Shown here piece by piece: positions 4,901 to 33,887 of a stretch of DNA of 64,000 bases; position 1 is the stretch's first letter, and each line of letters opens with the position of its first letter. The translations under genes were made by a program, and so were the position numbers. Source of the stretch: Ophelia neglecta (lineage: Eukaryota). The notes beneath the pieces were generated by a model. That model was given only the letters and a program-made list of their open reading frames with translations, was not told the origin of the DNA and ran no database searches. The DNA lies in assembly GCA_965285935.1 (NCBI GenBank), contig OZ260663.1, positions 112,344,001 to 112,408,000 of the forward strand, written 5' to 3'.

Positions 4901-7900
4901 CGTACTTATTTCCTTCCGAAATGATCAGGAAGTGTCCGCTGCACGCCCCTGACATCAATGCGTAGTTCCCAACATGTAATCAAGCTAGTAAAGAAATGTT
5001 ATTAAAATTAACGTAGGACCGAGATAGAATATGCTCTAAGACACTCTAAGATGGAAAGAGCTGGTTAGTAATTGTGAGATTATAAAACGGTTTTATCTCA
5101 CACAACACAAAGTGAGAAGGATGTACAGGTCTCTGACAAGCTGTTCTATAGTACCGTGATATTATTTTCTTGTCCTAGCTGTAGATCGTTATGGTAACAT
5201 CACCCAGGGCGCGGCGTTCCCCTGTAGATGTTCCGATGGCTGTGACTCTGATAACGGGACTTGTCTTAATAACGGTTCTTGTTTAGATGGCGAACCACGC
5301 GACAAAGGACACAGTTGGCACGGACATGGATGTCGGATTGGTAAGAGATTGTGATGTTAGTCTATTGATCGTGAAGCTCTGAATTTATACAGTGTTGATT
5401 GGGTGGTTTACGGGATTTGTCTAATTTCTGATCAGCTCGTGATCAATGGTCGAACTGGGGTTGATATCAAATTATATATACAAGCCGTTCTCTCAATACC
5501 TTTGTTGATTGGCTGCTATGCATCAAGCGATGATGTTTTCAACTATTGAACCAAGAGATCTGTGTTTGCAAAACACTCTGAATGAATTGAATACTAGCGG
5601 GAATGTATCGTTGTATACAAATAGCCGATAAATCGATACATTGATAAAACGCCCTCACTAATCAGGTATGTGATTAACATTAAAGGTTCTCTTCACATCT
5701 CACTTGTGGCATCACTATTCCAGGTAATGTCGCCTACGGCCAACATGCTTACCAGAAAGGGACTTGGCTGATTAAAGGCGATAAACCAGCATTAGCTGGT
5801 TTGGCTGTCGACGGTGACATAAATCCCAACGAAACGCAATTACATTGTGCTCATCCGGGTAACAGATCCTCAAATGATCCCAGCGCCGCCTGGTGGTATG
5901 TCGACCTGGGAACTGACCACGTGATCTACAGTGTAACCTTGTTTAATAGGGATCAAGATAAGTATTGTGTGTATATGTATTTCAACATTTCAATATTTTT
6001 AAATGGTTAATCATGTTGGCCATGAATCGGGATCTTAATGCAATATTATTACATTTGTAGATTGGATGTCTGAATTCCGGATTACTGTCGGTAACACTAC
6101 CGATATCAAAAATGGTAGTGAATGTGTACGGCACAAGGACCCAGTGACCAGAGGAGGGAATCTCACTCTCAACTGTACAACTACTATGACTGGTAGATAT
6201 GTCGCCTATGTTAGTGAGAGAACGTCTCCGCCAGATAAAATCCGCCTCGTGGGTATCTGTGAGTTCGTAGTTACTGGGAGATCATATGTCGGTGAGTAAT
6301 AGAACTGGAACCTTGGCTTCATTACTGGTTTATTTTAGTACAAGGTCGGGAGTTTACAACAGTGTTATAGACCTTTGAGACCAGACTTTAAATCTAAGAC
6401 TTCATTAATGCCTAAAAAATCCTTGACACGATAATAAATAATAATAAGTCCAGATGTATAAAGGATCATTTTTATTATTTTCTAGATTCAATTGAAATAG
6501 CCAGAAATACAACAAAAGTAAACTTTTAACACACAAAATCAACCAAGACCCCACCCCCTCCCGTTTCCCGGTGTGTGTGCATGCATGTATGTGTGCATGC
6601 GTGCGTGCGTGCGTGCGTGCATTGCCCTCAAGTCCCAATGGATATCCCCAGATATTGTCTTTGAGATAGGAGAAAGAAATAATTTCTGTGAAATGCTGAG
6701 AGGCCTTTGGCACGTTTAAAACCCTTAGCATCAGCCTTTCTGATTAAGACTGAATTTTGCGTGCCCCTTGAATTTATTTGGTCCTTCATAGAGATTAAGA
6801 TTTATTGTGCATTTAACGATTTCATGTGAAGTGGGAATTACTACATTAATTAATTGGGATTTAGTTAAGGAATTAAGATCATTGCGAAGTGAGTGACAAA
6901 CCACATTTTAAACAAATGTGTTTTGGCTCCTATCTTTACCTTAAAAGTGACCGGTGATCCCTTATCACTCCCATCCTTCCGCCGCCAAAAAATGTATGTT
7001 TATTAGATTGCAGCCATTGTCCTCCGCCGGCCACCTGCGATGACTACGATGGCTGTAGTAGTTGTCCTAATGGAACCAGACTACCGAACTGTACAAGATG
7101 TGGGTCTCTCTTATATCAAATCTCCAATAGTTAATAGCACAGAAATTTGGCATGACACCCATATTAAAAATATATTCAATAACATCAACTTAGTCAATAT
7201 GTTATAGCTTGTATATCTGGTTGGTATGGGAAGAGTTGTGAGGCCAGATGCAGTCCCCACTGTAAACCGGCCAGTGACTCGCCTTGTAATAGAGTGTCTG
7301 GAGTCTGTACCAACGGATGTAAAGAAATCTCTGATGTCGGGAACGACGTATGGTGGCTGGGAGACAGGTGTGACATCCAAATTAGTAAGTTAGGAGGAAC
7401 AACTTCATATAACTTGACCTAACCGTGTAATGACAATGTCAGTAGTTGATCGTTTTCTTTTGGTAATACTGGACCCAGGCTGTAGTTACTTGGTTATTTT
7501 GCCAATCGCTAATTTCTCACTATCATTATCCTGGATGGAACGCGTCATAGAGCCCCAGCAATCCACGAGTAATTGCACAGGGCTTTCTTAGGCACATAAT
7601 CACAGAAATCACGGCGACGCCTTGGTTTATACACATTTACAGGGGCTACAACGCCAAAAGTCTTATAAAACGTGCTCACTTTATCTTTTAGACCAAGTGT
7701 TAAACATGGCAATTACTAGACTGACTGGAACAGCAGCCAGCTCGACGACGGTTATACTAGATTGGCATTACTCAGACTCCATCTCAGATAATGCGGCCCC
7801 TTATATTGGCTACCAAGTCTACAGAAAGGTTAATGACAGTCAGTGGAGCCGAGAACAGAACGTTACACACCAGACATCAGACCAGCAGCAGGTGTTAGTT

Positions 7901-8914
7901 GTAGGACTGGAGCCTGAGACCAGGTACCAGTTTGGCTTGTCTGTGTACAGGGTGTACACAGACGGCACGGTGTACGAGGGGAGTGGAAAATACCCCGAGG
8001 TCAACGTGACAACAGGTTAAAAGAAGCGTGTTATCTTTTTTCTTAATCCCCATCGTCCATTGGCTTCTCGCTACTCTCTCTCTCCTTCAGAGTCAACCCA
8101 AGTAACCTCTCCCAACTAGTTCTGTCCTATACTATAATTATGTCTCCTACTTCACCCAGTTAAACGCCGTTAGGCGGCTTTTCAGTGATTTCCATATAAG
8201 GACGTTTACTTGGAAAAGACTTCGTGTATCCTGAATTGGTTATGTATTTTCGTCTAGCTCGTAAGCCATCTCCTAAAACCTCGTCTTCTTCAACGTCAGT
8301 GACGACTACGCCATTCAAGGTACCTGAGCAATCTGGTGTTTGCCAAGGCAGTGCCTTAAACACCGGGTTGATAGCGGGACTGGCTGGAGCAAACGCTATC
8401 ACACTGGCCATTGTCCTGGTTTTATCAGTGATATTGATAAGGTAAAGAGATATTCCACAAACTAACGGATCCATTGTACACGTCAATATCGTTTTATGGT
8501 AAGTATAGTTTTTAATATCAAAATTATTCAATTTAAGGAACAAGAGAAATTATTTGAAGCCGACAACTGGAATGGAGGCGACAAACCAACGAACCGTTCA
8601 GCCATCGTATGAGACATTAGATCTAGGTCTCTCCTCAGTAAACCATGGACCCACTACTGGCGCTGAATATAGTATTTTATTTTAACATTGTTCTATCTGG
8701 TTATTGCAATGTAATTAAAATCCACTCGCGTATAATCTAAATTAGTGTTTGTACCTGTAAAGCAAACAATTGTGGGTGTATAAGTCCCAACCTGCCATTA
8801 TTCAAGATTTGTGTTTCAGGTGAACTGAATCTTCCAATAGAGCTCTGTCCGCCACGACCCACGCCGTATCTGCAGTCCACCGGACCAGACGATTATGAAA
8901 ACATTGGGGGGTAA
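1929..8914 (+). CDS. Receptor copy A: type I membrane protein (signal peptide, EGF-like, F-type lectin/fucolectin, EGF-like x2, FN3, S/T stalk, TM, Tyr-motif tail), about 570 aa, 10 exons
   Basis: Phase-compatible GT-AG exons: 1929-1998 (MATLFTVAVYSILVISCVLRAVM), 5179-5340 (CRCSDGCDSDNGTC..WHGHGC), 5724-5966 and 6061-6291 (NVAYG..LAVDG..CAHP..WWYVDLG..GRYV..ICEF), 7007-7099, 7208-7384 (CISGWYGKSCEARC..C), 7692-8015 (FN3: ILDW..GYQV..GLEPETRYQF), 8258-8441 (TM GLIAGLAGANAITLAIVLVLSVILIR), 8538-8671, 8820-8914 (stop). Total 1713 nt, no internal stop. The same exon structure recurs in copy C. Confidence 0.85.
4220..4364 (+). mobile_element. Probable LINE 3' end relic in intron 1 of copy A
   Basis: A stem GGGAGGCCCT..GAGGGTCTCCC is followed by AATAAA and an (ATCTGA)n tail, an arrangement typical of non-LTR 3' termini. 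Confidence 0.35.
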
Positions 8915-10231: not shown

Positions 10232-13200
10232 CTAAGTGTCAGGAATCATAGGAAGGCTATTCAGGTATTGATGATACATGTCGGAGAGGCATTCTAAAAC
10301 GGAGGGGCGTGACGCTACCATATACGAGGAACAATCCAGGAGTGTGACGCACGGATCATTTGGGGGTCCCATTTCTAGGTGGTTCGTGTCAAGGCAGGTG
10401 TACAGCCGGTTGCGCATCTGCAGTAGTGACTGGCAATGGAGTAAGAAATGTTTGAGGTCATCTCCGGGGCTGCAGCACATGGGGCACCAGTTCCTGTTTT
10501 GGTCGATAAATTTACCAGCGTGACTGTAAAGAGCGGAGGTCCTAGTAGCTAATTTCAGGATTATCTGAACACCCTTGCTCGCTCCCATGCTGGTTGCGTA
10601 CTTCCACCATTCCATGGGGGCGTAATTTGGCATCAGTTGCCGATATATATAAGACTAGGGCTCGTCAGAAAAGCGACTCGCCAGGAGTCTTCAAGGTAGG
10701 ACATAGTAACCTTCTGTGCGTGGGACTTCCAGTGGTGTTTCGATGGGGTCATGCCAGTTCTAAGCCACGACTGGAGGGAGTCTAGGAGGGCGAATTTCTT
10801 GTAGGTGTGAACAAATACACCAAGGGGGCTGTCGTGAGGGAGAGCGCCATCGAGAAAGTGAGAAGTGAGGGCTCTTATACATAATACTCTGTATCTATTA
10901 TACGGGTCAAGGCCCATTATGTTCCTGAGAGACGTGAGCCTCTGTAAATCCAAGTAAGAGTCAACAGTTCGCCAGCTTATGGATGCAAGCACTGCGGGGT
11001 TACATGTTCTAGGGGATAAATGTTGAATCAGCCTTGCCATTTTGCGATGCTCTTTCTCCAATAACTCTAGAGACAGGGCGGATAGATTCAGGAGCTCGAT
11101 GCGGTAGAGGAAACCTGGAATGACGATTGCCCAGTAGAGCTTGGAGAGAGAGCGCGTGTTGAACTTCCCATGGGATGAGCCGGTACCTAGGAGGGAGTGG
11201 AGAGTTCTGCTGGCTTTTTCCGCCCTGGATTGGAGGAGCTGATACATGGCTCTCTCGGAGGTTGCCAGGGGGGTTCCCAGGTGTAGGGTTCTGTCAGTAC
11301 TAGGAATTAAGCCTACATCAAGACGGAGGGTAGGTAGTTGTGCATTATTGCTTCTAAAACACAGGGTCTCGCATTTCCCGACGTTGTAGTCCATACGCCA
11401 TTTCTTCCCATAAATATTGGCAATGTTTAGCATGTTCTGCTTGTTCCTCGGGTCAGTGGTAACTAGTGTTACATCATCAGCATAGCTGGGGAAGGAGGAG
11501 TCGAGGCCGTAGATAACTGCTCCTTTTCGACACGCGGTTAGTTCGACCAGTAGATCGTTGAAATAAAGGATGAACAGGAGCATTGATAATAAACCACCTT
11601 GGTGAACTCCTTGTAGTGACTCGAACCATGCTGATAGCTCAGAGCCGATCCGGACAGCGCACTTGAAGTTGGAAAACCAGCTCCTCAACAGCCTTAGGGA
11701 CTTGCCACGTATTCCCATAGCATGGAGCTTATACATGAGGCCATTGACCCATACACGGTCAAAGGCCTTGCGACAGTCCAGGAGAGTTACGTAGGCAGTC
11801 TGACCTTGTTGTAGCAGTTCATACACAGTCTGTCTTAGGATTAAGGCCGGATGCTTACTGGGGCAGTGCGCCAATGCTGCTCCCTGTTGGTCGTTTAAAA
11901 GACCGCTATTTCTCGACCACTCATCAAGTCTGATTTTCTTTATACTTTCAAACACTTTGCTTAGTACGGGTAGGAGACTTATCTTGCGGCAGTTGTCTTT
12001 CTTTCTAGGGTTTTTGGAGCCGCCTTTGAAGACTGGGATCTCGATGGCTCTTCTGAAGCTTTGGGGAATATATTCCAATTCAATAATAGCATTGAAGATA
12101 TTGGTCAGTACAGCAGCGAGGCGGGCGCCCCCAAATTTGACATGTTCTGCCGTGAGACCGTCCACACCTCCCGCTTTTTTCCAAGTTTCAACCGAGCAAT
12201 TATGGATGCAGTTTCCTTGACAGTGATGGGAGTTTTGAAGATAGTGTCCTCGTCCGATCCCGTTCCCACCATAGCCATGGGAACTTCTCTATCGACCAAG
12301 ACTTTAAAATCATTTTGGTAGGACATGTCCGTCTATAGGGCTAGTTAGAGTCATGAAGTAGCGACGCCATTCTTCACGAATCTCGCCTATGTCTGTTAAG
12401 AGGTGGCCTCTGTCGTTTTCTATTGCAGGTGTCTTTATATAACAGCCGGGTTTGAGTTTTCTTTTAACAAGCTGCCAATAATAGTCCTTACTAAGCTCGC
12501 CGGAAGTGATGATTTCTTCTTGTTGTTTATCATCCTCGTCGTGTGTGGCTTTTCTTCTCTCCTTCCTAAAGTCACGTTTACTCGATTTGTACTGTATATA
12601 TATCGCGTCTTTTCGGTTGCGTGGCTTCCCAGCCTCAATCCATGCCTGTCGGGCGGTGAGCTGGCTTTTTTTTACTGTATTCATTTTATTGTTCCAGTAA
12701 GGTTTCAACCACCGTTTAAAGTCAACCCGGGGTATGGTTTTTTCAGCCGATGTGTCGAGGATGTTTGTGACAGCTTCCGCTGCTCGGTCGATGCTGCTGA
12801 TCCCAGGGAGTTCACTAAAGAGTGTGTCACTGAATAGATCACGAGAGACGGCACGAGTATATCTTTTAGAAATCACATCTCCTTTGAGTCTTTTCCAGCC
12901 CAGCTTAACTATCGAAGGCGCTTCAGTGTGCGACATTACGGGAAATGATCTTAATACCAGCGTCAGAAGCATGGGTAGGTGATCAGAAGTAACGCAAAGG
13001 TCGTCTTCGGTGACGGCACAGCTGGCAATATTTTGAGAAAATGCTGATGAGACTAAGCAGTGGTCGATATAGGATCTAGCGTTCCCATTACCAATGTATG
13101 TATATTCTGGACCAGTGGTCACTTCTCTGGCATCTATTGGTACCATGTCATTAGATTTGAGAAATTCGTCCAGCATACTACCATTGCGTGAAAGAGTGGG

Positions 13201-13821
13201 GGAGCCTCGCGGGCCAAACCTGACACTCACCTGAGAATTGAGATCCCCAATTATGATGACCGACCCGGATTCATGGAGGGTTTCAACACAATCTGACAAT
13301 ACACCAAGAACACCCTCGTATGATGCTGATTTGCATTGGTGCTGCGGTAGGTATACACTGAGGATACTGATACTACTCATATCATTATTTAACACCTGTA
13401 TTCCAACAATTCTATCAGATTTTATGTTATTAATAACTTGTACATTTTTAATATCGTTTTTCCAAAATAGTGCAACACCGCCTTGACCTATTATTTTTCC
13501 TTAGTTCTGTGGAAGCAATTTATCAGAAGATTTAGCAATACAAGAGAACAATGGGTTAAGATCGTATAATCTGTTGAGTTCATGTTTGTATAGGAGGTGC
13601 TCGTTGATACCGACAATATCATTCGACTCCAACAAATATTTCAAATATTCGGTCGAACTCGAGAAGCCATTACAATTCCAGTGACAAAAGCGTAGCTGAG
13701 CTGGGGCTAAACGGTTAGTGATATGCATACAAAGAACAAATTCAAGACAAAGGCATAACAACATGAAAATTATACGATCAATACAAGTCATAACCATTAT
13801 TGTTACTATTTCGGTAGTCAC
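10232..13821 (-). pseudogene. LINE ORF2 (endonuclease / reverse transcriptase / zinc knuckle), disrupted
   Basis: In-frame stop at 13501-13503 and frameshifts near 12320, 12160 and 10633 split it into 5 ORFs that carry collinear APE, RT and CCHC motifs. Confidence 0.88.
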
Positions 13822-15186
13822 TAAACTGAAGGTCTGTTATTGTTTGAGTTTGGTCTGGCGGCTCTTGTATCATATTTATTAAAGTCCCACTTGCGACATT
13901 TGATGTCTTCTCCCCAGAGGTTTTCTTTCATGGCATCGTATGCCTGCGATATTGGCACGAAAATTTTACAGCCGACTAGCCAATCATTCCACCTGTTTCT
14001 GATGACTCTGGCTGACATGACACGAATATCTTTGCCTCGGGCGTGATTACGGATGGACCCAATAATCGATTCGTCTGATTCGTCGGGATCCGTCTCTATG
14101 TGCTCAAGGTATAACATCAGGCCCTTTTCCGGTGTTTTGCCTTTTAGCGGTTTGTGGTACCTTGTGCAATCATTAGAGATATGAGATCGCGAGTCACTCC
14201 TAATTTGGCTATCATTGGGTCGGTGTTGTTGGGAGGGGCTGAGGTGTTCCTGACGCCTATTCTGCCTTCGGGTTCGCCTACTCACAACAGCTTCCCATGA
14301 GTTCTCATCATCCCTGTCTACGGGAGATTTGTTAGCACGGTTGTTGGTGAGTTCTGGGAAGGCTCTCTCCTGAGGTACTTGTCGTTGATAGTTTGTGGTG
14401 GGTGCCGGGCCCGCTAGTACAAAGTCAGCAAGCCGGGGGTCCTGTTGGTTTCTGCCGCTTTGCGAGGACGCCGTCTCAGAGTTTTTCACAGCTGGAACAG
14501 TGACAGGAGTGTTGGGCTGCGAGGTGTTAACGCACAACACCTGGCTCTGTGTATTTTCCCCTGTTCCTTGTAGGTCAAATATTATCGTTCTCAACGAAAT
14601 GTTCTCTTCCTCCAAATCTTTAATTTTCCTCCGAAGAACATTCAATTCTTCCACATTCTGGGCTCTATCAGCAGCTACATTATCAGAGAGTTTTGTCAGC
14701 TTAGTTGATACCTGCGCAATAAACTCATTCAACTGGGATGCCACGTCCGATATTTTGTACTGTTTTCCCAATAGATCTTTTTTTTTCATTGCCCTGGTTT
14801 GGTTTGGGGTAAATTCCGCCAACATTTTTATAAGCCGACCTTGTGAAGTCTTTTGTTAAATCTGCAGTATACATGAAAAGATTTAGTAGGTCTTCTACCT
14901 GTAGATCTGATGAGCGTCTGTCCTTCAGCACGAAGCCTTTGTTATCGAAGTTGTTCATGTCCAATTTGTGGCACGTCCGTTCCAGGTTTTCTATGGCGTA
15001 GTTTGAGAGTAGATCTCTTGATTGCAGGATAAGATCTTCATCTATATTCACCACGATCTCCTCTATCACTGCACGTTTACTCGTAGACGTTATTTTGCAC
15101 AATAAATATTTCACCGTATTGTTCAGTCCTGGAATGTTTGTCAAAAGCAAGGCAGCGGGGGGATCTGCGTCTGCACACTCCGCCAT
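13821..15186 (-). pseudogene. LINE ORF1 (coiled-coil, low-complexity linker, C-terminal RRM-like region), one frameshift near 14825
   Basis: Two overlapping ORFs. Heptad region LNEFIAQV..LRRKIKDLEEENISL; C-terminal LYLEHI..KIFVP..LWGEDIKCRKW. Likely start is AAGATGGCG at 15186. Confidence 0.7.
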
Positions 15187-16204: not shown

Positions 16205-19200
16205 CGAATTTAGTCAACAAAATACGATGTACGTTTGATTCCGGCCCAAGACGGCATATGCAACCAAAAAGCTCAGTTTTTCTCGGTGGATGTAAGAATT
16301 TGTGATGTCAGTTTATTGATCGTGAAGCTGTGTATTTATAGATAATATATGCTGGCTGATATTCTTAGATAATTCACAAAGAAAAGGCTGATTTTCTTAG
16401 ATAATTCACAAAGAAAATTGTTAAAATAAGATATGATATCATTATTTATTGGCTGATATGCATAAAGCGATGATGCTTTCAGCTATTGAACCAAGTGATA
16501 TGTGTTTGCAAAAAAAAAGATGCTCTGAATTAATGAAAAACTAGCGGGGATTTTATTATAATATAGCTTTTCGCATCCATATAAATATCTGGAAACCACC
16601 CGATTCGATTAGTCGATACATTGATGAAACGAAAAGCCCTAACTAATCAGGTATTATGGTGTGTGATTAATATAAAAAGCTTCTTTTCTCATCTCACTTG
16701 TGGAAACTATTCCAGGTAACGTCGCCTTCCGTCAGCATGCTTACCAGAAATGGGCTTGGCTGTTACGTGGGAGTAAAACCAGCAACAGCTGGTTTGGCTG
16801 TCGACGGTGACATAAATCCAGACCAACAACATCTTCATTGTGCTAATCCCGGTAACCTATCCTCCAGTGACCCCAGCGCCGCCTGGTGGTATGTCGACCT
16901 GGGAACTGAACACGTGATCTACAGTGTAACCTTGTATAATGTGAAAAACTATGTGTCTGGTATGTTTATATATTTCAACATTTCATTGTTTAAATGGTTT
17001 ATCATGTTGACCATGAATCGGAATCCAAATTCAATATCATTACAGTTGAAAAAAGGATGTCTGAATTCCGGATAACTGCAGGTAACACAACCGATATCAG
17101 AAATGGTAGGGTTTGTGCACGGCACAAGGACCCAGTGACCGGCGGTGGGAATCTCACTCTCAACTGTACAACTACTATGACTGGTAGATATGTCGCCTAT
17201 GTTAGTGAGAGAACGTCTCCGCCAGAAGACATCCGTTATGTGACAATCTGTGAGTTTGTAGTTACTGGAAGATCATATGTCGGTGAGTAATAGAACTGGA
17301 ACCTTGGCTTCATTACTGGTTTATTTTAGTTCGAGGTTGGGAGTTTACCACAGTGTTATAGACTTTTAAGACCAACATTTAAATCTTAAGAATTCATTAA
17401 TGCGTAAATATTCTGTGACCCGGTAATCAATGATAAAAAGTCCAGGCGTATAAAGGATCATTTTTATTTCCTTTTCTAGTTCAACTATTCTCAAAAAGAG
17501 TAAGTCATTTCATAGCAAATATGGGCGCTTCATACCTCGAAAAAATGCCAAGTAGGCGAGCTTCATCACTGTCAATATCGGAGCGACACCTGTACTAGTT
17601 TTTGATGCATCACGGTAATGGTTGCAGTTGTGAAAATGTCGTCACTGTAGTATTAATGGTTGTAGGTTTGTAAAATAGTATCCCAAAAACCTTGCCAGTT
17701 CCAAGCATTACATTGACGACTTAAATGTTTGTGTATCCAAGTGTTTGGCTAGTTGCATCCAAACCAAAAGTGCGTAGTAGGCTGAGTGGTTGGCTTGCCT
17801 TATTACACTCTAGGGCTAATGGATATCCGCCCAAGTTGTCTTCGAGAAAAGGGGAGGTTATACTTTCTCTAGAAGGTGGAGGGGTGGAGCCGTTGGAATC
17901 AGGCACTTTTTCAACCCTAAGAAACAGACTAAGACTTTTCCGTGACCCTAGAATTGACTTGTTCCTGCATTAAGATTACGACTTTATTTATTGTGACTTT
18001 TACGATTTCGTGTGTTGTAGGAATTATTACTTTATTGGGATTTGGGAATTTGGTCATTCCGTATTGGTTGACAAAACATTTATCAAATAACAGTGGTTTG
18101 TTTCCTTCCTTTTCCATGATCGAGTTCTTTAGGCCATACCTAACCCCCAACATTTCGCCGCCAAATAAATGTTTTTTCATGTATGTATATCAGATTGCAG
18201 CCATTGTCCTCCCCGGCCACCTGCGACGACTACGATGGCTGTAGTAGTTGTCCTTATGGAACCAGACTACCAAACTGTACAAGATGTAGGTCTCTCTTAT
18301 ATCAAATCTCCAATAGTTAATGGCGCAGAAATTTGGCATGGCACCTTACATGTTTTAAAATAATTTATATTAATAATATATTCAATAGCATCAAATTAGT
18401 CAATATGTTATAGCTTGTATATCTGGTTGATATGGGAAGAGTTGTGAGGCCGGATGCAGTGACCACTGTAAACCGGACAGTGACTCGCCTTGTAATAGAG
18501 TGTCTGGAGTCTGTACCGACGGATGTAAAGAAATCTCTGATGTTGGGAACGACGTATGGTGGCTGGGAGACAGGTGTGTCATCTAAATTAGTAAGTTAGG
18601 AGGAACAACTTCATATAACTTGACCTAACCGTGTAACGACAATGTCAGTAGTTGATCGTCTTCTTTTGGTAATACTTGACCCAGGCTGTAGTTACTTGGT
18701 TATTTTGCCAATCGCTAATTTCTCACTATCATTATCCTGGATGGAACGCGTCATAGAGCCCCAGCAATCCACGAGTAATTGCACAGGGCTTTCTTAGGCA
18801 CATAAAAATCACAGAAATCACGGCGACGCATTATTGGCTACCAAGTCTACAGAAAGGTCAATGACAGCCAGTGGAGCCGAGAACAGAACGTTACACACCA
18901 GACAACAGACCAGCTGCAGGTCTTAGTGGTAGGACTGGAGCCTAATACCAGATACCTGTTTGGCTTGTCTGTGTACAGGTTGCATACAAACGGCACGGTG
19001 TATGAGGGGATAAGAAAATACCCTGAGGTCAACGGGACAACATTACCGGGTAAAAAGAATCGGATTTCTTGTTATGCCAAAAACCCCGAAAACGTTTTAA
19101 TTATGATGTTTCAATGTTTTTTTTTATGTTTTGATGTTTTTTTAATGTTTTGATGTTTTTTAACTGCCCCCTTATTGTTGTCTTTTACTTTCAAATATTA

Positions 19201-20054
19201 AACACTTGATTCTTACAACAACTATGACGTCAGTATTGACATCAGCAATGACGTCAGCACGGTCGTCAGGAAGTACATCAGAAGTGACTTCCTCTTCCAC
19301 TGTCAAAGCGCCCTCGTCTCCAGGTATAAACGTCGGAGTCATCGCTGGACCGTCTGTGGCCTTTACTGTCCTCCTTGGTGTCGGGATAACTGCAGCCGTC
19401 CTAATAACTCTTAGGTAATACAATCATCAACAATACGTTTGATTTGCAATTCGTGCTTTTGAAGCAATAAAGTGGCACTTACCCTGCACTTTCCCCATTG
19501 GAAAAACATAACATGCCATTTTATTAATCAATTAACTTTGTATTACCTTAAAACAGAATGTTTTCCAACAGACGCAGTTCTAGGCAAAAAGAAAAGAAAA
19601 ACCAATCTAGCTCGGGAGAAGAACGGGTAGGACCGGCAGACGGTAAGGTGGTAGTAATTACTCACGTCTTTTGTGAGAATACGTTAAGTATAAACGAGGA
19701 ATATGTTTTTTCTATATGTTGGGAATATTGTCATATCAAATCGAGCGTTGTTGATAATGTAGACAATTCGGACGCCGCAGGAGACTCCGAGGAAGACGAC
19801 CTGGGAGACATTGGCCTTGAGGTAGCAGATCAAGGTGGTAATGAGCAACGTGATCAGATGTATGAGAACTTTGGGGTCGTTGGATTTAAGTCAACTGCCA
19901 TCAAGATTAAAGACCTTAGATCTTTTGTAGTGGAAAAGTCTAAGACGGACTTTTTCCAATTGGAATTTGAGGTAATATCACACATATTATTGACATCCAG
20001 CTTGTTATTAGATAAGATAGCAGTACGTGTTTACTAACTGTCGTTATGTTTCAG

Positions 20055-22022
20055 TCCGTCCTGGTAGAATATCCCTTCACGTGTTTAGCAGCAGAGAAAC
20101 CTGAAAATAAAGACAAGGATAGATTCAAGAATATCAAATCTTGTAAGCAATATTGATTTTAATGTCAAAAGTTCTCAGTACCGAAGGCTTGTTACGAAAT
20201 AGGACGATGTTCTAAATAATTAATATTTCACTTCCAGACGACACGACCAGAGTTGTATTGGATGTTGAAGATGAATCCACGGACTCCGCCACGGACTACA
20301 TCAACGCTAACTTCCTAACAGTAATTATAAAGTATTGTTTTATGACCTAACAAAACTTCCCGATTGTTACTTCTTTAATTGTTCAGTTATATTTCAATAT
20401 AATTTAAGCCACTTTACACTCGGAAACTCCTAATTGCAGGGTGCTGGGAACACAGATAAAATATATGTAGCCACTCCAGATAGGTTTAGAATCATTGGTT
20501 TTGTAGTTCCCTTCCACAACTTGACAATATGTGTAACTAAAACAATGAATTCATTGCAACCTTTACACGGAGTTTGCGATGTTTGCCAAGTATTTAAGTA
20601 GGATATCTGTATACTAATTAAGTTCATATTTATTCATCATTCTCGCCTTCAAATCTTATACTACAGCACCAACACCTCACACTCTGACTGACTTCTGGAG
20701 AATGATGTGGCAGTTAAAGGCGAACAGAATTGTCATGCTCACTGAAGTTATAGAAAATGGTGTGGTAAGCACATCTTTGTCAAGATATATTTCTTCAATT
20801 GTATGTTTTAAACAATCAGGCCTCTCCTAATAATAACCTCCCATTAACACAAAATAGTCATATAAATGATTATTAGATCAGAATCAGCAAAAACACAGGA
20901 CAATGTCGAAATACGGATGGAGTGAAGGTAAAATAGACGGTTAATGTCCATGAAGACATTTTTTCATCAATCGCATTACAGTGGAAAAATCCCGAACAAA
21001 AAAAAGTTCTGTTTGTCACAATATACTTTAAGAGAAAATGTGGCAATTACTGGTCAGACGGACATAGTGCAGAAAAAAAGTTTGGACATTTCACTGTTCG
21101 AGTCGTCAGTTGTGACGTTTTTACCGAATATGATTTGAGGATAATGCAGGCCATCAAAGGAGTAGGTTTTTTCACCAATAATTGTTCAATTTCTGTTGTG
21201 GATTTTTTCTCATATATTTGTACTAAATCCGCTTGCCTGTATTATTGTTTACGTTTTTAGGAAGAAACCAGAACCGTGCATCACCTGCAGTTTTTAAAGT
21301 GGCCAGACAAGTTGGCTCCAGACGAGACCTACCCTCTGCTCGCCTTCAGGAGGAAGGTCAGATCCTTCGACATGGTCAGCAGCGGTCCGCTTGTCATCCA
21401 CTGCAGGTACAATATATAACACTAAATAAGACAACATACCACTGAACTGTGTTTAACGGCAATCTGTTGCCGCATGGTCAATGAAGAAGTTCATCACATT
21501 CTTAATATTTTGTTCCTTCCACAGCGCTGGTGTAGGAAGAACCGGGACTTTCATAGCGATAGACCAGTTGGTCCAGCAGGCGGCGACAGACGGAGAGATA
21601 GACGTGCTGTCATTGTTAAGAAAAATAAGGTCGCAAAGGAGCCATGTCATCCAAACTCCAGTGGGTCGTTTGATTAATTTCAATACGCTTTAGCATTGTG
21701 TGTAAAAAGATAATTCAATTCCAACCAGTACCGTAGTTCAAGACAGCCTTAAATATATATTTACCTTTACCTTACGGTACGCTTGAATACTATGAGCAAA
21801 TTCGCCAATGTCTTTCTTCTGAATTGTGAGCATAATAATTATAAACTTCCATTTATTTGCGCTGGATTGAAGGAGCAGTACAAGTTTGTGTACGAAGCTA
21901 TTGTCGAGGCAACACGATTCCGTGAGGGCCCGTATATCCCTTGTTCCAACATGAGCGATGTCTACAAAAAACTGATATCCAAACAAATAAAGGGCAAAAC
22001 TGCTATGGAGAAACAGTCCCAG
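20055..22022 (+). CDS. PTP domain D1 exons of copy B
   Basis: Motifs DYINAN, DFWRMMW, IVMLT, KCGNYW, WPD, IHCSAGVGRTG and QTPEQY. The donor after 20479 reads AT instead of GT. Confidence 0.85.
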
Positions 22023-22277
22023 GTCAGTGGCCCCTTCTATATACAATAATGTTTTTTACATATTATTAGGACATTTCTGTTAACTTTCAGAAGGGACATT
22101 TGTTCGTCCTCCCCATGATCTTTGTATATTTTCAGTGGCGCCTTTTTCATGATTTTATGAAATAGATCTTCTTTTCACACTCAGTACCGTCTATAGTTAA
22201 ATTAACCTTCTTTGCTTTGAAAGCAAATTCAACATATTTAAATAGATCATGCTGTAACACATTATTATCGCCATCAG

Positions 22278-24354
22278 TTCTTAAGACAAATGTGTCCGAA
22301 ATGTATCCCTGACGAGTCTGCAGTGAACGACGAAAACCTCTCGAAGAATAGACAGAGCGATATACTGCCTTGTATGTTAAACATTAATCTAACGCTATGT
22401 TTTGAAGCTCAAATACGTTCGACCTAATAAAATGCAGTTTTGTCAGTCATTTCAATGTAACACCCTATATTATGTACACAACGTTTTACCTACATAGTAT
22501 ATAGAGGGGCTGTCTCTTTCTGCTAACTACATAATGTCCATTGTTTAGGCGGCTCTCGGCCATTTCTCTCTACCAGAACTGACGATGGTAATGACTACAA
22601 CAACGCTGTGTTCTTTGACGTAAGTTCTAAAACAACTTTACAATCAGCCAGTGCGGCTAACCTCCATGATCACATGTCTTATTATTAACCTGAACACAGT
22701 AACAACACATGTATATCTGTGTGTATTTTTATAGACTTACAGGATGGAAAAGGGTCTTATAGCGACCCAGATGCCGCTCCCAAACACCATCGTAGACTTT
22801 TGGAGGCTGATATATGACCATGAATGTGGATGTATCGTACTGCTACAAAATGAGGATATTCTGGACGAGGTCGGTTTAGTCCTATAACTATATAATATGA
22901 CATTGCATGTAATGCCCAAATATATCTCACAGTTTTGTACCATTTCATTGAATAGACCTGCCCAGTGTATTGGCCACAGAGTGTCAACTCGAACATGACG
23001 TTTGGTCCGTTTGAGGTAACGCTTGTCAAGGAGAACAACACGACGGATGTCTCCACGCGAGAGTTCTCACTAATCAACACCAGAAAGGTTAGTTCACAGT
23101 AATGTAATCCTACTTCAACACAATTGCAAATATTTTCTCCTCATCTGGTTTGATCTCAATTACTATAATGTCGTTTTTTTTACTATACTTTCACAGAACT
23201 GTCAAATATGAAGGGGTCTTAACTTACAATTCATTTCATACTTCGATTAATTTCAATTGTTCTCTGCCATCTTTCAAACACAGTGTAATTTTTTTTCTTC
23301 TGAACCCTGGTAGTCAGATTGCTTGATTTCTGTATATGTACTAAAAGGGCTATTGTTATTTATGTTTTATTTTCCCACTATAAATTTGTACTTTCTAAGT
23401 ATATAATTGTTTATAAGCCTTTTTTGCACGTTCTGCACTAAGTTATTATATGTCATTACATGGGGCCAATAAGCTCTGCTTCTGCTCCACCTGTCAGGGG
23501 TTCAATATTGTATCATATGGACTTGTTTTATTATATTCATATTAATTTGTTACTTTATCTAGTTGTTTATTCCTTTGTATTTGATCCTTTGTGAACCTTT
23601 GGCAATAAATATTATATTATTATATTATATTATATATTATAGACCCGAGAAAAGGCTCGTACAGTCGCACAGTTTGAGATGTCTGACTGGCCTCAGTCAA
23701 GAGACCTCCCGACCGAAGCGGCCTTTGTCAATCTGTACGACCGGGTGGAGACCTGGAGGCCGGAGGTATCCAATAAGACTACAGTAGTTCAGTGTCTGTA
23801 AGTAGACAAACTATAAATCTCTCATGTCCAATTATGAAATGTCTGTCCTGTCTGTGAAGCTTATTTATCGGTCTGCAGCTGGCGGATCCTGAAAATATCC
23901 GATATACATTCCCGTTTTTATTAAAAATCTATTTAAGCTATATTGTGATAGCCTCTTCAATTACACATTTTTTGTTTAGCGATGGCGCCACTAGATGCGG
24001 TCTGTTCTGTGCTGCCACCTATCTGATACAAAAGATGGCCGCTGACCAAGAACTGGATGTATTCAATACAGTGCGATGCATTGCCAGTAATAGGTCTCAA
24101 TTCATTGACTCAGTGGTAAGGTTTACGTTAATAATAAATAAAGTCATAATTTAAAGCTCGTAAAATGATTTAAATGAAGTATCGTGTCTTTCTTGCAACC
24201 TTTTAATGAGAAACAATACTCTACTCTCTAGACTTATACTTAGTGATCATATATGCTGAGTGAATTTCTATCCTTCCCACAGGCCCAATATGGCTATCTA
24301 CACGAGTTGGCCATACATTACCACGATAGCCACTCAGAATATCAGAACATTTAG
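22278..24354 (+). CDS. PTP domain D2 (pseudophosphatase-type) exons and C-terminus of copy B
   Basis: Motifs KNRQSDILP, ATQMPLPNTIVDFWRLIYD, VYWP, WPQ, VQCLDGATRCG and DVFNTV. Ends SEYQNI-stop. Confidence 0.85.
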
Positions 24355-27977: not shown

Positions 27978-30900
27978 ATGGCTACGCTTTTAACGATAGT
28001 CGTGTACAATATTCTGGTGATATCCTGCATTCTCAGAGCTGTGATGGGTAACGTTAAATAGTTTTTCTTTACATTATAATTTGCCATATCCTGAAAATTT
28101 TCTGTCTCGGGCGGCCTTCGTGGAGTTTATTCAGTCCAAGATAATCAAGACAAGAGTTTGACTGAAGGCTGATTAATCATAATCGACAAATCACACACTC
28201 ACCATGTATGTCATTATCCATATCATATGGTGTATTGTAGCTGACATCTGGTGCCGGACAGGGGCCGCCCATTAGGTGCCTGTTAGGTGAGATATGGTGT
28301 CAGGCAGCGGTTATATGGTATCTGTCAGCGGCCATCTCGTGTACGACAGCCGCCATCTGCTGTCTAACAATCGAATTTCTTGACCTCTACAACAGGCCGC
28401 CCATGAAAGACAGTTAATAATAATCTCGAGAGCCCTGTTCTCAGCCCTAGATCCAACTATGTTGTAGATTATCCTGGCTGTCTTAGCCCCGTGCTTTTCA
28501 CCAATGCCTGCTATCCTGGGCCGGTATGTTTGTATACAATACGGAAGTTTTAAATATTCTGTCTTGTATTTGCAACCATATTTGCCATCAAACCAAATGA
28601 TTTTAAGTTTCGCAAGACCGCCTTTGAATTCGTAAATGCACTTATATAAATTGGGGGTTGGCTTATAAACTTTGATCAACAAAGTATATAATAACTCGAT
28701 GTGTGGCCCGGGCTGACTGTCGGCTGTCAATGTACTGATTAAAAATGGCGCCGGTAGATTGTGTACTCTTCTTTACTTTACTGCTAAAACATTCATTTCA
28801 ACACAAACAAGTCTGCCTTGCTGGCCTCAAAGTTTTTGAACGCCGACAATTCTTATTCAATACATAAACCACATTCAGCTATGCAAGGCGGAGTGGCGAA
28901 GAGAGGGAGAGGGGTACGGGGACGGGGAGGGGGGGGGGGGTAGGGGGGAAAGGGGGGGGGGAGGAATCAAATCATAACAACTTGGACATCTAGCATCTTA
29001 TTATAGATATTGATCTTAGGAGCTCGCCAATATTTTGTTCCTCCATAATCCGGGAAAACTAGTTTATATGATAAACTTAAGTTCATGATTAACAATGTTT
29101 AGTAAAGTCAGTAGATAAACTGTGCACCACGGACTTGAGAAAACACTGTCTCAAGAATCTTATCATATATAACTGTTGTTTAAGATCTGTTGTTAAAGGG
29201 GAGGGAGATGTGATTGTTTTTTGGTGCGGTGTGCTGACGTAGTTATTGTTATTCCATATTTGGCTCGTTCAGAAAGCTATGGAAGTGTTATTTCCCGCTT
29301 TTTTTCGAAAGTAGGCCTATATATGCTTTGCAGATCAGTGCATGAAGCCATGTACCAGTGTTGTTTTGCAGAGTAGGAAACATCATTACGTGGCTGTTTC
29401 TTACGGCAACAGTGAGAGTCAGAATTTATTATTGTTACTACCGAATACTTTTTATTATTTTATCATATTGTATAAATTAATTCTGTATTACTGGCGCTTT
29501 TAATTCAGCAAGGGTTAGTAGTGCTGGCGGATTAAGACCCGACGTTCTGAGCGACTGTAAATGCTCTAGGATTGCCATAATATGGAATAAGCTCTTTAGT
29601 ATTTGTGAGATTATAAACGGTTTTATCTCATACAACACAAATTAAGAAGGACGAAAGGTCTCTGACGTGCTGTTCTATAGTTCCATGATATCATTTTCTT
29701 GTCCTAGCTGTAGATCGTTATGGTGACGTCACCCAGGGCGCGGCGTTCCCCTGTAGATGTTCCGATGGCTGTGACCCTGATAACGGGACCTGTCTTAATA
29801 ACGGTTCTTGTTTAGATGGCAAACCACGTGGTAAAGGACACAGATGGCACGGACATGGATGTCGGATTGGTAAGAATTGGTGATATTAGTCTATTGATCG
29901 TGAAGCTCTGTATGTATGCAGAGTTGATATGACATGTAATTACAAAGTATTTAATATTAGGGATGTTATGGTAATGGGATTTGCGCAAACTTGAATTGTG
30001 AGGTTTACGGGTTTTGACAAACTTCTGATCAGTTCGTGATCAATGGCCAATCTCGGGTAACAGCAATTTCCATCGAATTACATTTACTAGCCGTTCTCTC
30101 AACTGTGACTTTATATGTACTGACTGATATTTAGAGATATTTCATACAGAAAACTCCTCATAATAAGAGGTCGGATTGACGGACTCCGATGTTTTACAAA
30201 CAAACTTAAACCATTATTGAGAGGCTGATATGCATCAAGCTTTCAGACATCTTTGTTTGCCAAAAAAAAAAGATGATCTGAATTAATTACAGACTAGCGG
30301 GAATGTATCGTAATATGGCGTATCGTATTCATATAAATAGCTGGAATCCACGCGATTCGATTAATCGATACATTGGGGAAACGTGACGCCCTCACTAAGC
30401 ATGAATCTATGGAGTGTGATACACATTAAAGGTTCTCTTCACATCTCACCTGTGGAATCACTATTCCAGGTAACGTGGCCTACCGTCAGCATGCTTACCA
30501 GAAAGGGACTTGGATGTTTCGTGGGAAAATACCTGCAACAGCTGGTTTGGCTGTCGACGGTGACATAAATCCTGACCAAGGTCAATATCATTGTGCTCAT
30601 ACCGGTAACCTATCCTCCAGTGACCCGAGCGCCGCCTGGTGGTATGTCGACCTGGAAACTGACCACGTGATCTACAGTGTAACCTTGTTTAATGTGGATC
30701 ACGATGTGTATAGTATGTATATGTATTTCAATATTTTAATATTTTTGAATTGTTAATCATGTTGGCCATGAATCGGGATCTCAATGCAATATCATTACAT
30801 TTTAAGTTAGGATGTCTGAATTCCGGATAACTGTCGGTAACACAACCGATATCAAAAATGGTAGGGGATGTGTACGGCACCAGGGTCCAGTGACCAGAGG

Positions 30901-33887
30901 TGGGCATCTCACTCTCAACTGTACAACTACCATGACTGGTAGATATGTCGCCTATGTCAGCGAGAGAACGTCTCCGCCGGAATACATTCGTTACATGACA
31001 ATCTGTGAGTTCGTAGTTACTGGGAGATCATTTGTCGGTGAGTAAGAGTGAAGCAACCTACGTTTCATTGCTGAAATATGTGGGGTTTAGATCAGTGTTT
31101 CCGACTTTTGCGTCCGACTTCTTAATTGGAGACTTAATTAATGCCTTATTTTGCCGTTACACGATAATAATAATAAAAAGAAGAGGATAAAGGGTCAATT
31201 TTCTTTTCTTTTTTCCAATTCACTTGAAATGGCCAGAAAAACAACGAAAAATAAACTTTTAGCGCAATCAACCCAGTACTACCCCCCCCCCCCCCCCCCA
31301 CCGCCTTCCCTACCTTCTCGGTGATTTATTCATATCTGCCATGAAAATTTTTAGATTTCTCCGAATAGTTAATCAATTCATAGTCAATACAGTCGATATA
31401 GTCCATTCATTCTTTGCAAGAAAATTGCCGAGTTTGCGCGCTTCATCACTGTCTCTTTCGTCGCGGTCCCTGCACTACGTTTTTGCTGAATCGCACTTAC
31501 GTGTACAATAGTGAACATTTTTACTTTAGTACTAATGGTCGAAGTCTCGTAAAACAGTATTTCAAGCACATCGTTGCGGACTACATATATTGAGTTTAGT
31601 GTTTGCTAGTTGCAGACAAAACAAATGTGTTCGGCGTAGTAGGAGTAAATCTCTTGCTTTATTGCCTTCAAGGCCCAGTGGATATCACACCATATTGTCT
31701 TTGAGAAATAGGAACGGAATAATTTCTGTAGAATGCAGAGAGGCGGAGCCGTTGGATATTGGCACGATTAAAACCCTAAGGAACAGCTTTTTAATTAGGC
31801 TGATTTCGGCTTGACCCTCGAATTAACTACTTCCATTTTGTGGTCATTTAATAAGGGAATCTAGTTCATTCCGAAGTGATTGAAAAACCATATTTTAAAT
31901 AAAAGTGTTTTTGCCCCAACCTATACTTTAAGAGTGACCAGTGATCTGGTTTACCAAACCATAACCAAATCCCAACCTTCCGCCGCCAAATAAATATATT
32001 TTCATGTATGTTTATCAGATTGCAGCCATTGTCCTCCCCCGGCCACCTGCGACGACTACGATGGCTGCAGTAGTTGTCCTAATGGAACCAGACTACCGAA
32101 CTGTACAAGATGTGGGTCTCTATTATACCAAATCTCCAATAATTAATACAGCAGAAATTTGGCATGGGAACTTACAAGTTTTAAAAGCATTGAAATTTAA
32201 GTATGTTCAATAACCTCAAATTAGTAAATATGTTATAGCTTGTATATCTGGTTGGTATGGGGAGAGTTGTGAGGCCACATGCAGTGACCACTGTAAACCG
32301 GACAGTGACCCGCCTTGTAATAGAGTGTCTGGGGTGTGTACCGACGGATGCAAAGAAATCACTGATGTCAAGAAAGACGTTTGGTGGCTGGGAGACAGGT
32401 GCGACATCAAAATAAGTAAGTAAGGAAGAACACTGTTACATAACCTGACATCACAATGTAAGTAGCTGATAGTCTTTGTTGGTAAAATTTGGACCAGGCT
32501 GTAGTTACTTGGTTATATTGCCAATCTCTAATTTCTCAATATGATTATCTTGAATGGTACTCGTCATAGGGCCTCAGCCATCCGCTGGTTATAACACATA
32601 CTTCAAAAGGGCTTTCATAGCCACATTAAATCACAGAAATCCCGGTTTTGCATCTTTTCACCCAATTCCAGCGGCTACAACGCCGTGATTTAAGTATATC
32701 AAAACCTACAATCATGCTCACTTTATCTTTCAGACCACGTGTTAAACGCAGCCATTACTAGATTGTCTGGAACAGCAGCCAGCTCTACCACGGTTATACT
32801 GGAATGGAATTACTCAGAATTCATCTCAGATAACGCGGCTCCATATATTGGCTACCAAGTGTTCAGCAAGGGAAATGGCAGCCAGTGGAGCCGAGAAGTG
32901 AGCGTTAAACACCACACATTAGGCCAGCAGCAGGTGATAGTGGTAGGACTGGAGCCTGAGACCAGGTACCAGTTTGGCTTGTCTGTGTACAGGGTGTATA
33001 CAGACGGAATGGTGCACGAGGGGAGTGGAAAATACCCTGAGGTCAACGTTACAACATCAGCAGGTAAAACCGAGTCGTGTTATCTAGTCTCCATCCTCAT
33101 CCTCCCCCTAGGGTCCTCGCCACTCTCTCTCCCTCGGAGGGAGAGTGGCGACTAATCCTGTACCATACAACACCCAGTTAAACGCCGCTAGGCGGTGCAT
33201 GAGTGATTTCCATACAAGGACGTTTTCTATGGAAGAACTTGTGTATCCTTGTGTAATCATGTATTTTCCTCTAGTTCCAAAGCAATCTCCTGAAACCTCG
33301 TCTTCTTCAACTATGATATCGACATCGCCATTCGATGTATCTGGGCAAAATTGTGTTGTACCTTAAACACCGGGTTGATAGCGGGACTGGCTGGAGCAAA
33401 CGCTATCACACTCGCCATTGTCCTGGTTTTATCAGTTATAGTGATAAGGTAGAAAGCTTTTCTACAAACTAACACAAAAAGGTGCACGTCAATATCGTTT
33501 TATGGTAAGTGTAGTCTTAAATATAGAAATTATTCAATTTAAGGAAGAAGAGAAATGAATTGAAGCCGAACCCTGGAATGGAGGCAACAAACCAACAAAC
33601 CGTTCAGACATCGTATGAGACATTAGATCTCGGCCGCTCCTCAGTAAACCATGGACCCACTACTGGCGCTGAATATAGTATTATATTTTTTGGTGTTTTT
33701 CTTTCTGATTATTACATGTAAAGCAAACAATTCTTGGTTTATCAGTCCCAACCTGCCAGAATAATTCAAGATTTGTGTTTCAGGTGAACTGGATCTACCG
33801 AAGGAGCTCTGTCCTCCACGACCCACGCCGTATCTGCAGTCAACCGGACCAGACGATTATGAAAACATTCGGGGTAACAACGGATAA
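27978..33887 (+). CDS. Receptor copy C: A-type lectin-EGF-FN3 receptor truncated before the TM (secreted ectodomain or young pseudogene)
   Basis: Exons 27978-28047, 29708-29869, 30470-30712, 30807-31037, 32019-32111, 32239-32415, 32734-33063, 33275-33448, 33544-33677, 33784-33887. The ectodomain frame is intact. A 10-nt deletion relative to A (TGCCAAGGCA) near 33357 gives TAA at 33364-33366. The downstream TM and tail exons are otherwise open. Confidence 0.82.

Follow-up and report, generated by a model that had tools for sequence, protein, structure and literature searches.

Amino acid differences among three tandem F-type lectin receptor copies of Ophelia neglecta are concentrated in the predicted binding loops

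Results and Discussion

The window analysed, a stretch of 64,000 nucleotides of the Ophelia neglecta genome, contains three tandem copies (A, B and C) of an F-type lectin-EGF-FN3 membrane receptor gene, all on the forward strand, and the amino acid differences between them are concentrated in the loops predicted to bind the ligand. The explanation that we moderately favour is that differences at the pocket have been kept by selection while gene conversion evened out the framework, together with the EGF exons and some stretches of intron.

Organisation of the cluster

Copy A is the only intact receptor, with a protein of 570 aa consisting of a signal peptide, an EGF-like module, the F-type lectin domain, two EGF modules, an FN3 domain, a transmembrane (TM) segment and a tail with tyrosine motifs (Table 1). 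The ITAM consensus is YxxL/I-x(6-8)-YxxL/I; the tail of copy A does not contain one, its first two YxxL motifs being 16 residues apart and the third, YxxI, lying at the end.

Copy B is a broken lectin-phosphatase receptor, i.e., a pseudogene. Neither a signal-peptide exon nor the first EGF exon was found upstream of its lectin exons, and the likeness to A and C begins near 16290. Counting the 5′ exons that are missing, the lesions of copy B number eight, of five kinds; the others are two frameshifts and two nonsense codons, a deletion of about 180 nt that takes an acceptor with it, and an intron donor at 20480 reading AT in place of GT. The first phosphatase domain (D1) carries HCSAGVGRTG, the Pfam Y_phosphatase model matched all six exons tested, and the juxtamembrane exon is in frame with the donor at 19642. 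A role of copy B as a set of alternative exons, joined by splicing to the first exons of A, was also considered and rejected as unproductive, given its frameshifts and stops; splicing that skips to its TM and phosphatase exons may occur. In copy C, a 10-nt deletion in the stalk/TM exon, read from the assembly sequence only, creates a stop at 33364-33366 ahead of the TM segment and leaves 465 aa. The damage to B and C was missing from an earlier note on this DNA, and two of the three pockets compared below, one in a pseudogene and one in a truncated gene, may be outside current selection.

Table 1. Position of the receptor exons and predicted loops in the window.
Feature	Position	Strand	Evidence
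Copy A exon 1, putative signal peptide	1929..1998	+	ATG, GT donor, hydrophobic 23 aa
Copy A EGF-like exon 5′ of the lectin domain	5179..5340	+	open, AG/GT; Pfam EGF E = 0.026, under cut-off
Copy A F-type lectin exon 1	5724..5966	+	Pfam PF22633 E = 3.8e-6, at cut-off
Copy A lectin exon 1 loops	CDR1 5756-5794, CDR2 5819-5845, CDR3 5855-5887, CDR4 start 5948-5966	+
Copy A F-type lectin exon 2	6061..6291	+	open, AG/GT; CDR4 end 6061-6065, CDR5 6213-6257
Copy A two EGF-like exons	7007-7099, 7208-7384	+	open, AG/GT; second: Pfam DSL E = 0.028, under cut-off
Copy A fibronectin type III exon	7692..8015	+	Pfam fn3 E = 6.5e-8
Copy A Ser/Thr stalk and putative TM exon	8258-8441	+	TM predicted from sequence
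Copy A tail exons	8538-8671, 8820-8914	+	three Yxx[L/I] motifs, putative SH2 motifs
Copy B F-type lectin exons	16716-16959, 17046-17282	+	+1 frameshift near 16774-16778
Copy B EGF exon	18194-18285	+	-1 frameshift
Copy B EGF exon	18414-18590	+	two in-frame stops, 18428 and 18584
Copy B FN3 exon	to 19049	+	about 180 nt missing including acceptor; break at 18832
Copy B TM exon and tandem tyrosine phosphatase domains	19234..24354	+	18 exons, 713 aa open
Copy C signal-peptide exon; EGF-like exon	27978-28047; 29708-29869	+
Copy C F-type lectin exons	30470-30712, 30807-31037	+
Copy C loops	CDR1 30502-30540, CDR2 30565-30591, CDR3 30601-30633, CDR4 30694-30712 + 30807-30811, CDR5 30959-31003	+
Copy C two EGF-like exons and FN3 exon	32019..33063	+	open
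Copy C stalk/TM exon, then tail exons out of frame	33275..33890	+

An artefact of assembly or annotation, in which collapsed haplotypes or paralogues would have generated chimeric copies and the lesions of B and C would be sequencing errors, could draw on the short homopolymers at both copy B frameshifts, on the many similar copies that seem present and on the assembly-only deletion of copy C. Nevertheless, we consider it very improbable: the lesions of copy B are separate and diverse, three difference-free contigs cross its 5′ break, by only ~31 letters, and the promoters, introns and flanks of A and C are their own. The summed contig depth was ~680-1090 over the copy A exon bins (X1), whereas three contigs that match the unique DNA 5′ of copy B without differences had 6-17; this contrast hints at many more copies in the genome, the depth sum itself being no copy number. 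No further paralogue sequences came from protein searches with lectin exon 1, with a best identity of at most 58% among the 150 representatives listed of 206 found, or from a metagenome scan, and literature searches showed, among the papers listed, none on such a receptor family in annelids.

The lectin domain

Lectin exon 1 matched striped bass FBP32 (3cqo; E = 2.7e-7 for A and 7e-7 for C) and eel agglutinin AAA (1k12; E = 0.052 and 0.013, respectively), and the entire domain could be aligned with 220 non-redundant F-type domains. The marks of the fold family, namely the calcium motif h2DGx (AVDG), the Cys50-Cys146 and Cys108-Cys124 pairs and the Asp64-Arg131 bridge, are identical in the three copies, all of which have Ile/Val instead of the Arg41-Glu149 bridge. 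Exon 2 was mapped through the 220 domains plus a homologue aligned to 3cqo/1k12; since this exon alone gave no F-type match in the PDB and its pairwise match to a homologue was weak (E = 0.12), the placement of CDR5 depends on the multiple alignment. A homologue, P0148, folded without an alignment, reached a pLDDT of 46 and was set aside.

As stated in the earlier note, no copy retains the full His/Arg/Arg triad, which reads H/R/W in A, N/V/R in B and H/V/R in C; the His52 equivalent of copy A precedes CDR3. The canonical fucose motif His..Arg-x-Asp..Arg/Lys (His52, Arg79, Asp81, Arg86) is likewise replaced by H/R/Q/W, N/V/N/R and H/V/H/R, respectively, and the Cys82-Cys83 pair is absent from A, B and C. 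Both the His and the first Arg persist in 10 of the 30 closest homologues, and the loss of the triad is common to the subfamily rather than new to these copies.

Differences between the copies map to the predicted pocket

The loop limits were drawn from AAA numbering after the differences had been seen, and hence were not blind. Within these limits, A and C differ at 23/56 loop residues, compared to 8/101 in the framework (Fisher p = 1.4e-6), A and B at 23/55 and 11/101 (p = 1.5e-5), and B and C at 16/55 and 14/101 (p = 0.032). The clustering held when the limits were shifted by -2 to +2 residues (p from 1.2e-3 to 1.4e-6), and five windows of equal size placed at random contained at least 23 differences in 7 of 100,000 trials. 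In a check independent of our own limits, based on the published sugar-contact residues of eel agglutinin, A and C differ at 7 of the 11 contact positions compared to 24/146 elsewhere (p = 0.0012), and at 0/13 structural positions; among the three copies, 9 of the 11 contact positions vary. General tolerance of the alignment columns was discarded as the cause (entropy 2.76 bits for changed and 2.35 bits for unchanged columns, p = 0.12). Among conserved F-type columns, 7/15 changed in the loops and 0/47 outside them, and among tolerant columns 16/41 and 8/54, respectively (p = 0.009).

The concentration of divergence in the predicted binding loops, claimed in the earlier note, was therefore confirmed, as were the identity of the framework segments it quoted from A, B and C and the lack of change in the next EGF exon between A and C (0/30 amino acids). 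Of the 19 motifs it quoted, 15 were found in plain frames at the places given, and three, belonging to CDR4, after GT-AG splicing; the first motif of copy B occurs in no frame, because the exon is 244 nt long, compared to 243 in A and C, and the peptide reads across the +1 frameshift. CDR4 is interrupted by an intron in all three copies; for B and C we used the donors homologous to that of A, other in-frame choices numbering two in B, three in C and none in A.

Silent changes and dN/dS

The earlier note had proposed diversifying selection; under classical positive selection, the loop residues would have been driven to change at more than the neutral rate along a single gene history. Several results point in this direction: loop dN was 0.34-0.35, compared to a dS of 0.13-0.16 outside the loops (framework, other exons); with one gene-wide silent rate the loop omega was 1.74-1.77 (p = 0.005-0.02); and M2a was better than M1a (p = 0.009 for ABC, 0.028 for AC), with 15/25 and 12/19 flagged sites, respectively, in loops that account for 56 of 500 codons. 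However, 13/56 loop codons are multiply hit, a known source of false positives in selection tests according to the cited part of 10.1101/165969. Once double-nucleotide changes were allowed, the M2a comparison gave p = 0.125 and 0.27, and the loop omega under a gene-wide silent rate fell to 1.44-1.49 (p = 0.08-0.19).

Moreover, silent changes are themselves more frequent in the loops, where they affect 10 of 32 amino-acid-identical codons compared to 8/89 elsewhere (p = 0.007), or 7/29 compared to 8/89 if those adjacent to another change are left out (p = 0.051). A loop-specific silent rate, 2.3-3.1 times higher, was preferred over a common one in each of the four fits (p = 0.004-0.015), and against this local silent divergence the loop omega was 0.70-0.83 by counting (95% CI 0.32-1.83, both kappa values) and 0.51-0.87 by maximum likelihood. 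Thus, dN/dS above 1 is significant for the binding loops in the simplest models only, and is not robust to multi-nucleotide changes and silent-rate variation. As regards the outcomes that the earlier note had taken to speak against its own view, the changes are not scattered but sit at the predicted pocket, while loop dN/dS, taken against local silent divergence, is not higher than neutral. Considering also that mosaic copies break the assumption of a single tree, classical positive selection seems to us unlikely, although the least so of the alternatives.

Mosaic copies

The three copies are mosaics. The 477 sites private to one copy fall into 231 runs, compared to 314 expected, and none of 10,000 shuffles gave so low a number. 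Sites private to A make up 32/56 of those in the loops and 94/421 elsewhere (p = 2e-7), the remaining loop sites belonging to B (13) and C (11). A and B are nearly identical in EGF2 and intron 6, with only 13 differences in 416 bases, but not in the loops, where 23/55 residues differ. Loop DNA divergence (49/168, 29%) is slightly higher than that of noncoding DNA (564/2629, 21.5%; p = 0.026), but codon positions 1 and 2 taken alone are not above it (30/112, p = 0.20). The divergence peaks are 24-45 bp wide.

Relaxed constraint would explain the loops differently: sugar binding would have been lost long ago, the pocket would drift neutrally with the fold alone conserved, and the decay of B and C would be noise. 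It is consistent with a loop omega indistinguishable from 1, with loops as variable as introns over the three copies (0.37 and 0.34 of sites, p = 0.39), with the subfamily-wide loss of the triad and with damage to two of the three copies. On the other hand, equally tolerant positions outside the pocket change far less, the changes fall on contact positions and mainly on the intact copy A, and the loops of A and C are equal in length, without indels. We regard neutral drift of the pocket as improbable.

Proposed selection on pockets under gene conversion

Since the copies are mosaic, divergence peaks maintained by selection under gene conversion are the best reading. Gene conversion would reset the framework, along with the EGF exons and some of the intron sequence, between copies, while selection would hold the predicted binding pockets apart; the loops would then be older 'peaks of divergence' and not the product of a recent fast sweep. 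Each pocket would have its own non-self ligand, probably other than simple fucose, because both the triad and the Cys-Cys pair have disappeared from the subfamily. Short-tailed members may signal through recruited SH2 proteins and phosphatase-tailed members may dephosphorylate, and the result would be an innate-immune or recognition repertoire under birth-and-death evolution.

The comparison is based on three sequences from one haplotype, two of them damaged. Some observations weigh against selection with conversion: neutral loops in a constrained frame would fit a loop divergence barely over noncoding, peaks as narrow as those observed would need short conversion tracts, and a recent chimeric origin of copy B would give a mosaic too.

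A more speculative proposal, to which we assign little probability, is that the cluster belongs to a large system of variable receptors in annelids, whose dozens of copies would exchange short loop cassettes by micro-conversion, with broken copies such as B as donors. Combinatorial pockets would be read out via paired short-tailed, phosphatase-tailed and secreted (C) forms, in allorecognition or the recognition of parasites or symbionts, possibly somatically too.

Receptors of such build are located at two schistosome-resistance loci in snails. In the worm family, variation at 9 of the 11 predicted contact residues suggests that specificity resides in the lectin pocket, and indicates which residues are of interest. 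In such clusters, hypervariable loops can bear the mark of gene conversion instead of a clear-cut dN/dS above 1, and broken copies are easily taken for diversified receptors.

Comparison with known systems

Similar receptors are already known from snails, and pocket variation from oysters and eels. Divergence peaks under gene conversion are described for opsins, and pseudogene-fed conversion for MHC, R-gene and immunoglobulin clusters, in the cited sections of PMC3924837; narrow peaks at functional sites, homogenised duplicates and broken copies within the cluster are shared with our case, whereas the evidence comes from comparisons of orthologues or populations in those cases and from three copies in ours.

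In Biomphalaria glabrata, the LG5R 'scavenger class F-like' receptors include subgroups 1B, with a small cytosolic part, and 1C, with two PTP domains (PMC13712769), and SudRes1 of B. sudanica contains MEGF/GBD receptor-like PTPs (PMC12297450). As far as the cited parts of these papers describe them, they are, like ours, clustered single-pass receptors with a signal peptide, a galactose-binding/fucolectin domain and EGF repeats, and the clusters also include many paralogues, fragments and domain losses. Copy A matches the 1B plan (with EGF Pfam scores under cut-off) plus an extra FN3, and copy B the 1C plan by exon content, the gene being broken; unlike in Biomphalaria, the ectodomain contains three EGF-like modules and, ahead of the stalk, one FN3. 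The match is one of architecture, by description, and the cited parts contain no residue-level test of the pocket. Among the matches listed, the closest homologue from a named species that likewise begins with EGF-like and lectin modules is KAI0234096.1 of Lamellibrachia satsuma, in keeping with an annelid host.

In the sperm bindin of the oyster Crassostrea gigas, as reported in the cited sections of PMC5712786, diversification is clustered on the fucose pocket, some isoforms lack the His-Arg-Arg triad, as here, and recombination occurs at an intron mid-way in each lectin domain. By contrast, bindin is located in the acrosome and carries 1-5 lectin repeats in tandem, while the genes studied here are membrane receptors with a single lectin domain and signalling tails, and positive selection is reported for bindin, while omega above 1 is not robust in our data.

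Finally, eel AAA, eFL-1 to 7 and striped bass FBP32 share with the three copies the AVDG motif, both disulfide pairs and the Asp64/Arg131 equivalents and, as in our case, the CDR loops vary among the eel isoforms. The latter strictly keep the triad and CDR4, whereas A, B and C keep neither and have a longer CDR3 and CDR5; moreover, the eel and bass fucolectins are secreted, while copy A is a membrane receptor.

Organisation of the gene copies

Comparison of the window with itself revealed that the + strand carries three related genes, A, B and C, which are tandem copies of an F-type lectin receptor. Copy A has ten exons, all GT-AG, and its spliced product is open over 570 aa; splicing and Pfam gave the order signal peptide, EGF-like, F-type lectin (two exons), two EGF-like, FN3, Ser/Thr stalk, TM and tail. 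The nearest named protein that likewise begins with an EGF-like module and the lectin domain comes from a tubeworm, Lamellibrachia satsuma. The tail (75 aa) carries three Yxx[L/I] motifs, the first two separated by 16 residues, which does not fit the ITAM spacing, and any signalling by this tail is putative.

Copy C has the same exon set, with a stalk/TM exon 10 nt shorter, and in the assembly sequence a stop ahead of the TM leaves 465 aa, so that it would be either secreted or a gene in decay. The 10-nt deletion is probably recent, because the tail exons are conserved though out of frame (dN 0.04-0.09). In copy B the first two exons are missing, the reading frame is shifted by +1 in lectin exon 1 and by -1 in the first EGF exon, the second EGF exon contains two stops, and ~180 nt have been deleted together with the FN3 acceptor; the 3' part of this copy has a different TM exon followed by two phosphatase domains, open over 713 aa. 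Seven lesions fall in its ectodomain exons, against one AT donor in the phosphatase part, and the best interpretation of copy B is a receptor phosphatase that was broken recently. Two of the three copies are thus damaged.

Features of the window
Feature	Position	Strand	Observation
Copy A	1929-8914	+	Ten exons
Mid-lectin-domain intron, A	5967-6060	+	Splits CDR4
Mid-lectin-domain intron, B	16960-17045	+	Splits CDR4
Mid-lectin-domain intron, C	30713-30806	+	Splits CDR4
Tail exons, A	8538-8914	+	Three tyrosine motifs kept
Tail exons, C	33544-33890	+	Three tyrosine motifs kept
Stop, C	33364-33366	+	Ahead of TM
Phosphatase part, B	19234-24354	+	Almost intact; sole flaw AT instead of GT donor at 20480
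LINE	10633-14855	-	Near-complete, between A and B; ORF1-like frame, endonuclease, reverse transcriptase in separate frames
3' flank of A	from ~15445		Picks up again past LINE
Orphan signal-peptide exon copies	45287-45411 and 55281-55394	-	72-73% identical; in-frame stop each; no lectin exons nearby
Younger tandem duplication	41647-49616 and 51972-64000		~86-98% identical; 36-bp minisatellite at start
Single-exon class A GPCR	57283-58566		In younger duplication; open (Pfam 7tm_1)
Single-exon class A GPCR	46473-47749		In younger duplication; frameshifted

Divergence at the predicted sugar-binding pocket

Lectin exon 1 aligns to eel agglutinin (AAA, PDB 1k12) and FBP32 (PDB 3cqo), which fixes the positions of His52 and Arg79. 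For the second half, residues were placed with 220 non-redundant F-type domains (drawn from 299 distinct ones in 150 proteins among the matches listed) and with a homologue aligned to both structures. Loops CDR1-CDR5 were set at residues 11-23, 32-40, 44-54, 75-82 and 132-146 of 157, following the AAA numbering in PMC5712786, after the differences had been seen; for CDR3 and CDR5 the boundaries are inferred. Many nearest-homologue fragments stop at the intron in CDR4. The two extra CDR4 residues of copy B derive from an acceptor a few bases further upstream, and therefore splice-site sliding adds to loop variation.

Fifteen of the 19 motifs quoted in the earlier note were found directly and three more after splicing, the first motif of copy B being readable only across its frameshift. 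The claim that paralog divergence concentrates in the loops was borne out: A and C differ at 23/56 loop and 8/101 framework residues (p=1.4e-6), the excess persists with loop limits shifted two residues either way, and 7 of 100,000 random window placements reach this count. The variable residues fall on the predicted pocket: by the published residue lists on which these counts solely rest (PMC5712786), A and C differ at 7 of 11 sugar-contact positions (9 when all three copies are compared) and at none of the 13 calcium, disulfide and salt-bridge positions. General surface tolerance does not explain this: differences occupy 16/41 loop and 8/54 other positions in tolerant columns (p=0.009), and 7/15 and 0/47 in conserved ones. 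The pattern is real and well localised, and we consider an artefact very improbable.

As had been proposed, no copy has the full His52/Arg79/Arg86 triad, the residues being H/R/W in A, N/V/R in B and H/V/R in C, and all three lack the Cys-Cys pair. The first Arg is kept in 12 of the best 30 among 325 distinct exon-1-like domains, His together with Arg in 10, and Cys-Cys in at least one, many of these 30 being fragments ending inside CDR4; for the remaining 295 domains the corresponding numbers are 279, 198 and 202. Triad loss is an old subfamily trait. Neutral drift of a disused pocket seems to us improbable.

Possible selection and mosaic history

Between A and C, loop dN is 0.34-0.35 and loop dS 0.42-0.48, giving dN/dS (omega) of 0.70-0.83 with intervals spanning 1; dS is 0.13-0.15 in the framework and 0.16 in the other exons (343 codons), and noncoding divergence 0.25 (0.10-0.39; nine stretches, 2629 sites). 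Silent changes at amino-acid-identical codons number 10/32 in loops and 8/89 in framework (p=0.007), dropping to 7/29 in loops (p=0.051) without changes touching another change.

A codon model purpose-built for the analysis was fitted to 500 codons, excluding, from copy B, three codons near lesions, both stops and the two additional CDR4 codons. M2a was favoured over M1a (p=0.009 with copy B, 0.028 without), the flagged sites being mostly in loops, but no longer when adjacent double-nucleotide changes were allowed (p=0.125 and 0.27). Likewise, fixed partitions with one silent rate gave a loop omega of 1.74-1.77 (p=0.005 and 0.02), which fell to 1.44-1.49 once double changes were allowed (p=0.08 and 0.19). 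A loop-specific rate, 2.3-3.1x, fitted better in all four fits (p=0.004-0.015) and brought loop omega down to 0.51-0.87. Multi-hit codons, described in 10.1101/165969 as a known source of false positives, make up 13/56 in loops, 2/101 in framework and 10/343 elsewhere. Support for the diversifying selection put forward in the earlier note is therefore significant only in the simplest models, and the signal is weaker than, and different from, the proposal; omega above 1 in the loops is suggested but not established, because the signal fails with double changes and with the loop-specific rate. Classical positive selection, which those simplest models would favour, is accordingly a tentative reading that we hold to be rather unlikely.

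In the three-way alignment (~2.1 kb), private sites, at which a single copy stands apart, are clustered (231 runs against 314 expected; none of 10,000 shuffles as low). Copy A is the odd one at 32/56 private sites in loops and 94/421 elsewhere (p=2e-7). Across the 416 bases of the second EGF exon and the intron that follows, 13 separate A from B, and 57 separate each of them from C. In three DNA runs from one sample, contigs pile up over the exons (summed depth ~680-1090 in run X1, bins 4820-8803), and those identical to unique DNA before copy B have a summed depth of 6-17; depth is not copy number, and this hints that many more copies exist.

The explanation that we somewhat prefer is that selection keeps the pockets different while gene conversion homogenises the rest of the gene. 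Conversion between copies would even out most of the gene, and selection for different pockets would block it there, or bring in loops from more distant copies; we infer as the outcome narrow divergence peaks whose silent sites are likewise old. Such narrow peaks are described for opsins and MHC-like clusters in PMC3924837. Selection on the pocket is common to this explanation and to classical positive selection, and different ligands for each pocket are putative.

Comparison with known receptors

Among the papers listed by a literature search, none dealt with this lectin receptor family in annelids. The copies belong to an already known kind of receptor. PMC13712769 and PMC12297450 describe, at the Biomphalaria schistosome-resistance loci, clusters of single-pass fucolectin/GBD-EGF receptors that have either a small tail or two PTP domains, and PMC5712786 and PMC12221842 report CDR variation in eel fucolectins and, in oyster bindin, pocket diversification, triad loss and recombination at a mid-domain intron.
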